The notes beneath the pieces are model-generated. The model was not told the origin of the DNA, ran no database searches, and was given only the letters and a program-made list of their open reading frames with translations. Source: Escherichia coli (lineage in GTDB: Bacteria; Pseudomonadota; Gammaproteobacteria; Enterobacterales; Enterobacteriaceae). Taken from it: 64,000 bases of DNA. The stretch lies in the NCBI RefSeq assembly GCF_003334815.1, contig NZ_QOWO01000012.1; one strand, given 5' to 3'. This document shows, in pieces, positions 11,128 through 12,179 of the stretch. Position numbers and translations under genes: made by a program. Positions within the stretch are counted from its first letter, which is position 1. Every line of letters begins with the position of its first letter.

Positions 11128-12087
11128 GTGGCACAACGAGATTATGTACGCCGCAGCCAACCGGCACCTTCGCGGCGAAAAAAGAGCACCTCACGGAAAA
11201 AGCAACGAAATCTGCCTGCGGTTTCTCCCGCTATGGTCGCTATTGCTGCCGCCGTTCTTGTGACCTTTATCGGTGGTCTGTACTTCATTACGCATCACAA
11301 GAAAGAAGAGTCCGAGACGCTGCAAAGCCAGAAAGTGACCGGAAACGGACTACCACCAAAACCAGAAGAACGCTGGCGCTACATTAAAGAGCTGGAAAGT
11401 CGCCAGCCGGGAGTGCGTGCGCCCACAGAACCTTCTGCCGGTGGTGAAGTGAAAACGCCGGAGCAACTGACACCAGAACAACGTCAGCTTCTTGAACAAA
11501 TGCAGGCTGATATGCGCCAGCAGCCAACGCAGCTGGTTGAAGTTCCGTGGAATGAACAGACGCCGGAACAGCGTCAGCAAACGCTACAGCGCCAACGTCA
11601 GGCGCAGCAATTAGCGGAACAGCAACGCCTGGCTCAGCAGTCGCGTACGACTGAACAAAGCTGGCAGCAGCAGACGCGTACGTCGCAAGCCGCACCGGTA
11701 CAGGCGCAACCGCGCCAGTCTAAACCGGCTTCTTCTCAGCAGCCGTACCAGGATCTGCTGCAAACTCCTGCGCACACGACTGCGCAGTCGAAGCCGCAGC
11801 AAGCTGCGCCAGTTGCTCGTGCCGCTGACGCGCCAAAACCGACGGCGGAGAAAAAAGACGAACGCCGCTGGATGGTGCAGTGCGGTTCGTTCAGAGGCGC
11901 GGAACAGGCAGAGACGGTACGTGCTCAGCTGGCGTTCGAAGGCTTTGACTCGAAAATCACCACCAACAATGGCTGGAATCGTGTGGTCATTGGCCCGGTG
12001 AAAGGCAAAGAGAACGCAGACAGCACCCTCAATCGGTTGAAGATGGCGGGTCATACAAACTGCATTCGGCTCGCCGCCGGGGGTTGA
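11128..12087 (+). CDS. ftsN: Cell division protein FtsN (SPOR domain)
   Basis: 319 aa MAQRDYVRRSQPAPSRRKK; single TM segment, Q-rich linker, C-terminal SPOR-like region. Confidence 0.95.
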   Translation: MAQRDYVRRSQPAPSRRKKSTSRKKQRNLPAVSPAMVAIAAAVLVTFIGGLYFITHHKKEESETLQSQKVTGNGLPPKPEERWRYIKELESRQPGVRAPTEPSAGGEVKTPEQLTPEQRQLLEQMQADMRQQPTQLVEVPWNEQTPEQRQQTLQRQRQAQQLAEQQRLAQQSRTTEQSWQQQTRTSQAAPVQAQPRQSKPASSQQPYQDLLQTPAHTTAQSKPQQAAPVARAADAPKPTAEKKDERRWMVQCGSFRGAEQAETVRAQLAFEGFDSKITTNNGWNRVVIGPVKGKENADSTLNRLKMAGHTNCIRLAAGG

Positions 12088-12112
12088 AACCCTCAAAATC
12101 CCCCCCATCTAT
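12084..12112 (+). promoter_or_regulatory. sigma-32 heat-shock promoter of hslVU (-35 TTGAAA, -10 CCCCATCT)
   Basis: gTTGAAAccctcaaaatcccCCCCATCTa overlapping the ftsN stop; matches sigma-32 consensus. Confidence 0.75.
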
Positions 12113-12179
12113 AATTGCATTATGCCCCGTACTTTTGTACGGGGTTTGTACTCTGTATTCGTAACCAAGGGGTCAGCTC

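Follow-up and report, generated by a model that had tools for sequence, protein, structure and literature searches.

The short gap between ftsN and hslV in Escherichia coli raises two questions: which sigma factor directs transcription of hslVU from the sequence that straddles the end of ftsN, and what the hairpin near the head of the resulting message does. We examined both in a window of 64,000 nucleotides (the window here means this whole 64-kb stretch, numbered from its first letter), whose list of open reading frames places priA, cytR, ftsN, hslV, hslU, menA, rraA and zapB near the site. On the plus strand, the ftsN coding sequence occupies 11128–12087 and ends in a TGA stop codon at 12085–12087, as read from the open reading frame list and from the RefSeq annotation of the identical MG1655 sequence and of other E. 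coli. The same two sources place hslV at 12180–12710, with a GTG start at 12180, and hslU at 12720–14051, the two genes (12180–14051) forming one operon under the promoter discussed below. The Shine-Dalgarno region, AAGGGG at 12167–12172, lies 7 nt 5' of the GTG.

The window is E. coli chromosomal DNA. Positions 12040–12200 match K-12 MG1655 at every base. The segment 11900–12300, which many E. coli chromosomes share with 100% identity, was found in all 5426 of the 5426 complete E. coli genomes. Published MG1655 coordinates (NC_000913.3) could be converted directly, the window position being 4134467 minus the MG1655 coordinate, with hslV (4121757–4122287) and ftsN (4122380–4123339), both on the reverse strand, as anchors. 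The locus is the characterized promoter and leader hairpin of the hslVU (clpQY) protease operon of E. coli, and both elements are already known from published work (Lien et al. 2009, PMC2681174) and from Rfam.

A reading made from the sequence alone had proposed a heat-shock promoter for hslVU lying across the ftsN stop codon, and the motif, its conservation, a mapped start at 12119 and published data on rpoH and -10 mutants all bear this out, with promoter, stop codon and hairpin present at exactly the positions that it gave. The -35 element TTGAAA (12084–12089) contains the ftsN stop codon, and can also be read as GTTGAA at 12083–12088 under the consensus CTTGAA quoted in PMC10216364. It is followed by the 13-nt spacer CCCTCAAAATCCC (12090–12102) and by the -10 element CCCCATCT (12103–12110). 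The sigma-32 consensus, which we took from PMC10216364, PMC10044804 and Lien et al. 2009, combines a (C)TTGAA(A) -35 element with a CCCCATNT -10 element 13–14 nt from TTGAAA, and positions 12084–12110 match it exactly. The pattern TTGAAA-N13/14-CCCCATNT occurs a single time in the window, and none of 100 dinucleotide shuffles contained a match.

Genetic evidence for the function of this promoter has been published. Lien et al. 2009, who cite Chuang et al. 1993 for the hslVU sigma-32 promoter in E. coli K-12, reported that the beta-galactosidase activity and mRNA of a clpQ::lacZ fusion fall in rpoH mutants and do not fall in rpoS mutants, and that expression of the fusion goes up at 42 °C. A C-to-T change in the -10 element, converting CCCCATCT to CCTCATCT, lowered expression 1.7-fold and abolished heat induction (PMC2681174). 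We count it against our explanation that basal expression is cut by this mutation only 1.7-fold. The promoter reading is nonetheless confirmed as well as already published, with RpoH dependence and heat induction taken from this literature.

To place the promoter in an evolutionary context, we fetched 120 hslV loci from contigs representing one genome per species. The loci were found through a degenerate DNA pattern matching the ten codons at the start of hslV; since they were chosen by coding pattern only, the sample is unbiased for the upstream region. Of the 120 proteobacterial loci, 57 carry a perfect TTGAAA-N13/14-CCCCAT no more than 200 nt upstream of hslV; among them are 42 of the 46 from Enterobacterales, and perfect motifs also occur at this position in Pseudomonas, Stutzerimonas and Aeromonas. 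The remaining 1.94 Mb of fetched sequence held just one further match on both strands. The GGG(G)TTGAAA context, in which the promoter overlaps the end of ftsN, is kept in 44/46 Enterobacterales. One locus, that of Pectobacterium zantedeschiae (L047), is unusual in that, at approximately 130 nt upstream of hslV, the sequence 5' of the hairpin 3' arm is unlike that of the related locus L046 and the sigma-32 motif is missing, while the 3' arm itself and its T tract (GCGGGGGTCTTTTTC) are retained; this pattern suggests a rearrangement or an insertion with its breakpoint within the hairpin.

The transcription start has been mapped by SMRT-Cappable-seq, which lists an hslV-hslU unit at NC_000913.3 4120362–4122348, reverse strand, in two tables. 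After coordinate conversion the start is an A at position 12119 of the plus strand, giving a 5' UTR of 61 nt. This nucleotide is 9 nt beyond the last T of CCCCATCT, so that 8 nt separate it from the -10 octamer, and falls within the range of about 6–9 nt downstream of the -10 element; the equivalent distance in the dnaK P1 scaffold of the sigma-32 open-complex structure is 8 nt, with 7 nt between (PMC10216364). Lien et al. 2009 quoted a start 71 nt upstream of the GTG (PMC2681174). With a leader of that length, +1 would fall at 12109, within the -10 element CCCCATCT, in disagreement with the geometry of the promoter as well as with the SMRT-Cappable-seq start. The "71 bp 5' UTR" of Rfam and the literature is therefore probably about 10 nt too long, the leader being 61 nt instead. 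The supplements of the Cappable-seq study (PMC4782308) contain no entry for this region.

The sequence-only reading had also placed a hairpin in the hslV leader, and this too was correct: the arms span 12125–12144, ahead of the GTG at 12180. Eight G-C-rich Watson–Crick pairs join the 5' arm CCCCGTAC (12125–12132) to the 3' arm GTACGGGG (12137–12144) across a loop of four U (TTTT in the DNA), and an additional G12124–U12145 pair can close the structure and lengthen the stem to 9 bp. The hairpin as a whole (12124–12145, plus strand) has a predicted free energy of approximately -16.5 kcal/mol, and folding, covariation and published mutants all speak for it. Hairpins of this class, defined as having at least 8 Watson–Crick bp, at least 5 of them G-C, and a loop of 3–8 nt, are not rare in the window, which contains about 14 distinct examples compared to 3.4 per shuffle, and the folding of the entire leader is only modestly better than that of shuffled sequences (z = -1.69). 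Because such hairpins are common, the significance of this one lies in its position and its covariation across species, not in the presence of a hairpin alone.

In a scan against Rfam, the sole significant match was to RF02401 (ClpQY_promoter), which covers the hairpin and the conserved leader through the start codon at 12125–12182 on the plus strand. The match is full-length (model positions 1–57 of 57), and with 63.6 bits it exceeds the gathering threshold of 42 (E = 3e-13). The sequence-only reading had recognized neither that promoter and hairpin were described before nor that the hairpin belongs to a curated Rfam family. Among the 46 Enterobacterales loci, 39 have a contiguous leader hairpin of at least 7 bp, represented by 35 distinct hairpin sequences, with arms such as GGCCCTGCGC/GCGCAGGGCT, GCGCCGCGC/GCGCGGCGC and CCTCCCGTC/GACGGGAGG, and in 34 of these 39 the hairpin begins 12–15 nt past the -10 octamer. 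Serratia and Photorhabdus carry versions of 15–17 bp. The leaders outside the Enterobacterales (Pseudomonas, Aeromonas, Pasteurellaceae) are shorter and do not have this hairpin.

The helix is maintained by compensatory changes. We aligned the leaders of 31 species with MAFFT, unguided by structure, and compared a 9-pair helix with 500 shuffles. Paired cells made up 88.5% of the helix, compared to 38–56% when the 3' partners were slid out of register, and cells in which both sides had changed numbered 37, compared to 8.9 ± 3.4 in the shuffles. Compensatory changes were found in 7 of the 9 pairs, a count reached by 17 of the 500 shuffles; for the other four of the five covariation measures, none of the 500 shuffles reached the observed value. 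RNAalifold recovered the same helix. The leader thus has the feature on which RF02401 is defined, a stem-loop directly upstream of clpQ/hslV that is kept by compensatory changes.

Several further observations concern the structure of these leaders. A locus labelled E. coli (strain SCPM-O-B-8794, L092) has GCCCCGCACAATTGTGCGGGGC where K-12 has GCCCCGTACTTTTGTACGGGGT, a compensatory change from U-A to C-G in the stem at 12124–12145 between very close relatives, and E. albertii (L013) carries the identical change. The Pseudomonas and Stutzerimonas leaders (L015, L018, L026, L043, L052, L071, L082, L091 and others) measure 45–48 nt from the -10 element to a TTG start and share a small conserved hairpin, GGGC-N5-7-GCCC within CATTCGGGCATTCATCGCCCCG, possibly an equivalent, in shorter form, of the stem found in Enterobacterales. 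A run of 4–7 T follows the leader hairpin in Pantoea persica (L034), P. stewartii (L037), Erwinia psidii (L076), Pectobacterium betavasculorum (L046) and an Enterobacterales MAG (L016), as in GCGCCGCGC...GCGCGGCGC TTTTTTTC; the hairpin of these species thus resembles a canonical intrinsic terminator placed downstream of the sigma-32 promoter. In folds of single sequences, the TTGCAT region around the start site could plausibly form an outer helix with (T)GCAAC or GTAAC just before the Shine-Dalgarno sequence; we rejected this helix, as RNAalifold did not recover it from 29 full leaders and its 5' arm in E. coli (12115–12118) lies upstream of the mapped start. We also compared the distance between hairpin and promoter with that between hairpin and start codon, in order to tell a function tied to the 5' end from one tied to translation, which was uninformative: both distances are conserved because the variation in length sits inside the hairpin.

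What the hairpin does has been addressed with mutants. The sequence-only reading had suggested a thermosensing or stability element, and the second half of this suggestion stands on the mutant and decay data of Lien et al. 2009 (PMC2681174). Deletion of 40 nt of the leader (delta-40) or of the inverted repeat (delta-IR) lowered both mRNA and ClpQ protein, as did replacement of one arm by T residues (S-IR). Restoration of the stem with a different sequence (R-IR) restored mRNA and protein levels, and after rifampicin treatment the delta-IR mRNA decayed faster. The authors concluded that the structure stabilizes the message.

Combining these data with our own, we explain the locus as follows. 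RNA polymerase containing sigma-32 (RpoH) recognizes TTGAAA-N13-CCCCATCT across the ftsN stop codon and initiates hslVU transcription at A12119, so that expression rises as sigma-32 accumulates on heat shock. In the transcript, nucleotides 1–5 stay unpaired and +6 to +27 fold into the very stable G-C-rich hairpin, which serves as a 5'-proximal stabilizer that raises the steady-state level and half-life of hslVU mRNA through its structure and not its sequence. In the manner of ompA and papA, the hairpin would probably act by hindering the decay that RppH and RNase E carry out from the 5' end. Classical 5'-terminal stabilizers, as known from ompA-type work, tolerate fewer than 5 unpaired 5' nucleotides, and the 5 that a +1 at 12119 leaves unpaired count against reading the hairpin as a stabilizer of this classical type. 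The pBAD constructs of Lien et al. 2009 also carried extra 5' vector sequence (PMC2681174). Together, these two features leave room for another route of stabilization, in which case protection may not depend strictly on the 5' end.

Both halves of this explanation have competitors. The thermosensing half of the earlier suggestion did not survive folding of the leader or the search for known thermometers. Some heat-shock genes, such as ibpA and rpoH, carry RNA thermometers, and the hairpin lies in the leader of a heat-shock operon; it is this context, and nothing further, that would favor a thermometer that melts at 42 °C to increase hslV translation or transcript processing. However, 21 nt separate the end of the stem from the Shine-Dalgarno sequence, and the stem pairs with neither that sequence nor the start codon. 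When the RNA from +1 to +91 was folded, the predicted pair probability of the hairpin stayed at or above 0.99 from 25 to 60 °C, and the predicted accessibility of the Shine-Dalgarno sequence was 0.57 at 30 and 45 °C alike. Folding of the leader over 25–80 °C likewise gave no melting and unchanged Shine-Dalgarno accessibility, with AAGGGG unpaired with the hairpin throughout, so in these predictions neither the Shine-Dalgarno sequence nor the start codon is held in a helix that melts at physiological temperature, as it would be in an RNA thermometer. The stems of relatives are often longer and more stable, with 15–17 bp and down to -28 kcal/mol, and the Rfam scan gave no match to ROSE, FourU or any other RNA thermometer, even at E = 10. 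Lien et al. 2009 also stated, as data not shown, that a thermo-sensitive segment does not exist (PMC2681174). We therefore reject the thermometer, which we regard as extremely improbable. On the promoter side, transcription could instead depend mainly on sigma-70 or sigma-S acting through a perfect TATAAT hexamer at 12110–12115 of the plus strand, which overlaps the last base of the sigma-32 -10 element and might be a weak -10 element of its own (CTATAAT at 12109–12115), leaving the sigma-32 match secondary. A mapped start just 4 nt after this hexamer is too close for the hexamer to drive it. A promoter calculator has predicted sigma-70 promoters at roughly 55 bp upstream from the start (PMC10044804), but our own sigma-70 scan called no promoter, and there is no matching -35 element 16–18 nt from the TATAAT. 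Loss of rpoS was without effect on expression, as was, in data not shown, mutation of the putative RpoS -10 element (Lien et al. 2009, PMC2681174), and in the Erwiniaceae the TATAAT is not conserved (CATATCTGGT) whereas the sigma-32 motif is. The residual basal expression that rpoH mutants keep (PMC2681174) does speak for a second activity, and the TATAAT may account for this RpoH-independent remainder, but we consider it very unlikely that it provides the main promoter. Heat-evolved strains have been reported to lack 2 bp of the neighboring stretch of seven C (12100–12106), a deletion predicted to shift the promoter towards sigma-70 (PMC10044804).

A third alternative gives the hairpin to the upstream gene. 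It could also, or even mainly, be the intrinsic terminator of ftsN (cytR-ftsN) transcripts, in which case the sigma-32 promoter would be nested between the ftsN stop codon and its terminator and transcripts from hslVp would be partly attenuated. The E. coli element has a G-C-rich stem of 8–9 bp followed by UUUGU, it is the sole stable hairpin in the 92-nt gap, a cytR-ftsN unit reported by SMRT-Cappable-seq has its end past ftsN, and canonical T tracts lie 3' of the hairpin in Pantoea persica (TTTTTTTC), P. stewartii (CTTTTTTC), Erwinia psidii (AATTTTTC) and Pectobacterium (GTCTTTTT). Yet of the features of an intrinsic terminator only the G-C-rich hairpin is fully present in E. coli; the U tract is weak, and our terminator scan does not call the hairpin because only 4 of the 8 nt that follow the 9-bp stem are T. 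Across the Enterobacterales the median of this 8-nt tail is just 3–4 T. The Term-seq tables of Adams et al. 2021, which cover three conditions, contain no sense-strand 3' end here, the TERMITe supplements have no entry for a sense 3' end at the hairpin, and SMRT-Cappable-seq does detect read-through ftsN-hslV-hslU transcripts. The direction of the mutant effect is also wrong for an attenuator, whose removal would raise downstream mRNA, whereas deletion of the hairpin lowers it (Lien et al. 2009, PMC2681174). Termination of ftsN as an additional or main function of the hairpin is for these reasons unlikely in our view, and a partial role of this kind in E. coli is a possibility that we hold tentatively.

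The hairpin also lies next to a 3' end on the other strand. Supplementary file 1 of the Term-seq study of Adams et al. 2021 lists the 3' end of an RNA antisense to ftsN/hslV at position 12120 on the minus strand of the window (MG1655 4122347, + strand). Reading the hairpin on the opposite strand, this end lies 5 nt beyond it; the sense start is 1 nt away, and no U tract follows the end; the antisense RNA may have been trimmed back to the hairpin. One could imagine a single hairpin serving three transcripts, as a leaky terminator of ftsN (cytR-ftsN), as the 5' stabilizer of the sigma-32 hslVU mRNA and as the structure that defines the 3' end of the minus-strand RNA at 12120, although we think this combined role rather doubtful. 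If it were true, the balance between termination and read-through would set the basal, heat-shock-independent expression of hslVU.

A sigma-32 promoter followed by a stabilizing hairpin, with no temperature switch, remains in our judgment a highly probable account of the locus as a whole. Published experiments have shown that the promoter depends on sigma-32, that the -10 mutation affects it, that the hairpin is stabilizing and where transcription starts. The present analysis contributes the uniqueness of the motif, the cross-species conservation of the promoter and, for the hairpin, both the covariation and the prediction that it withstands heat. HslVU is a conserved heat-shock protease, and correct annotation of its promoter and leader therefore matters for regulon maps. 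Our results leave the current understanding unchanged and make three small additions to it: the leader is likelier to be 61 nt than 71 nt long, the stabilizer hairpin gains strong support from covariation across the Enterobacterales, and the thermosensor idea can be set aside.

These elements can be compared to known systems. The promoter is at the same locus as the published hslVU sigma-32 promoter of K-12 and is identical to it in sequence, and its -35 and -10 elements are the ones that Lien et al. 2009 marked (PMC2681174), the sole discrepancy being the start site, at 71 nt in that paper and at 61 nt by SMRT-Cappable-seq. ROSE and FourU thermometers are likewise hairpins in the leaders of heat-shock genes; in contrast to them, the hslVU hairpin holds neither the Shine-Dalgarno sequence nor the start codon sequestered, and its G-C-rich Watson–Crick stem is predicted to be stable above 60 °C. 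A comparison with the 5'-terminal stem-loops of ompA and papA was drawn by Lien et al. 2009 themselves (PMC2681174): all are stable, lie near the 5' end and prolong half-life by structure and not by sequence, although the hslVU hairpin differs in starting at +6, behind 5 unpaired nucleotides, and in having worked behind extra vector-derived 5' sequence. RF02401, the cis-regulatory 5' UTR stem-loop of clpQY mRNA, despite its name ClpQY_promoter models the leader RNA and not promoter DNA. Its order of a stem-loop, a conserved leader, a Shine-Dalgarno sequence and a GTG is found here without any difference, and indeed the family was built on the element of Lien et al., of which the E. coli sequence described here is the archetype.
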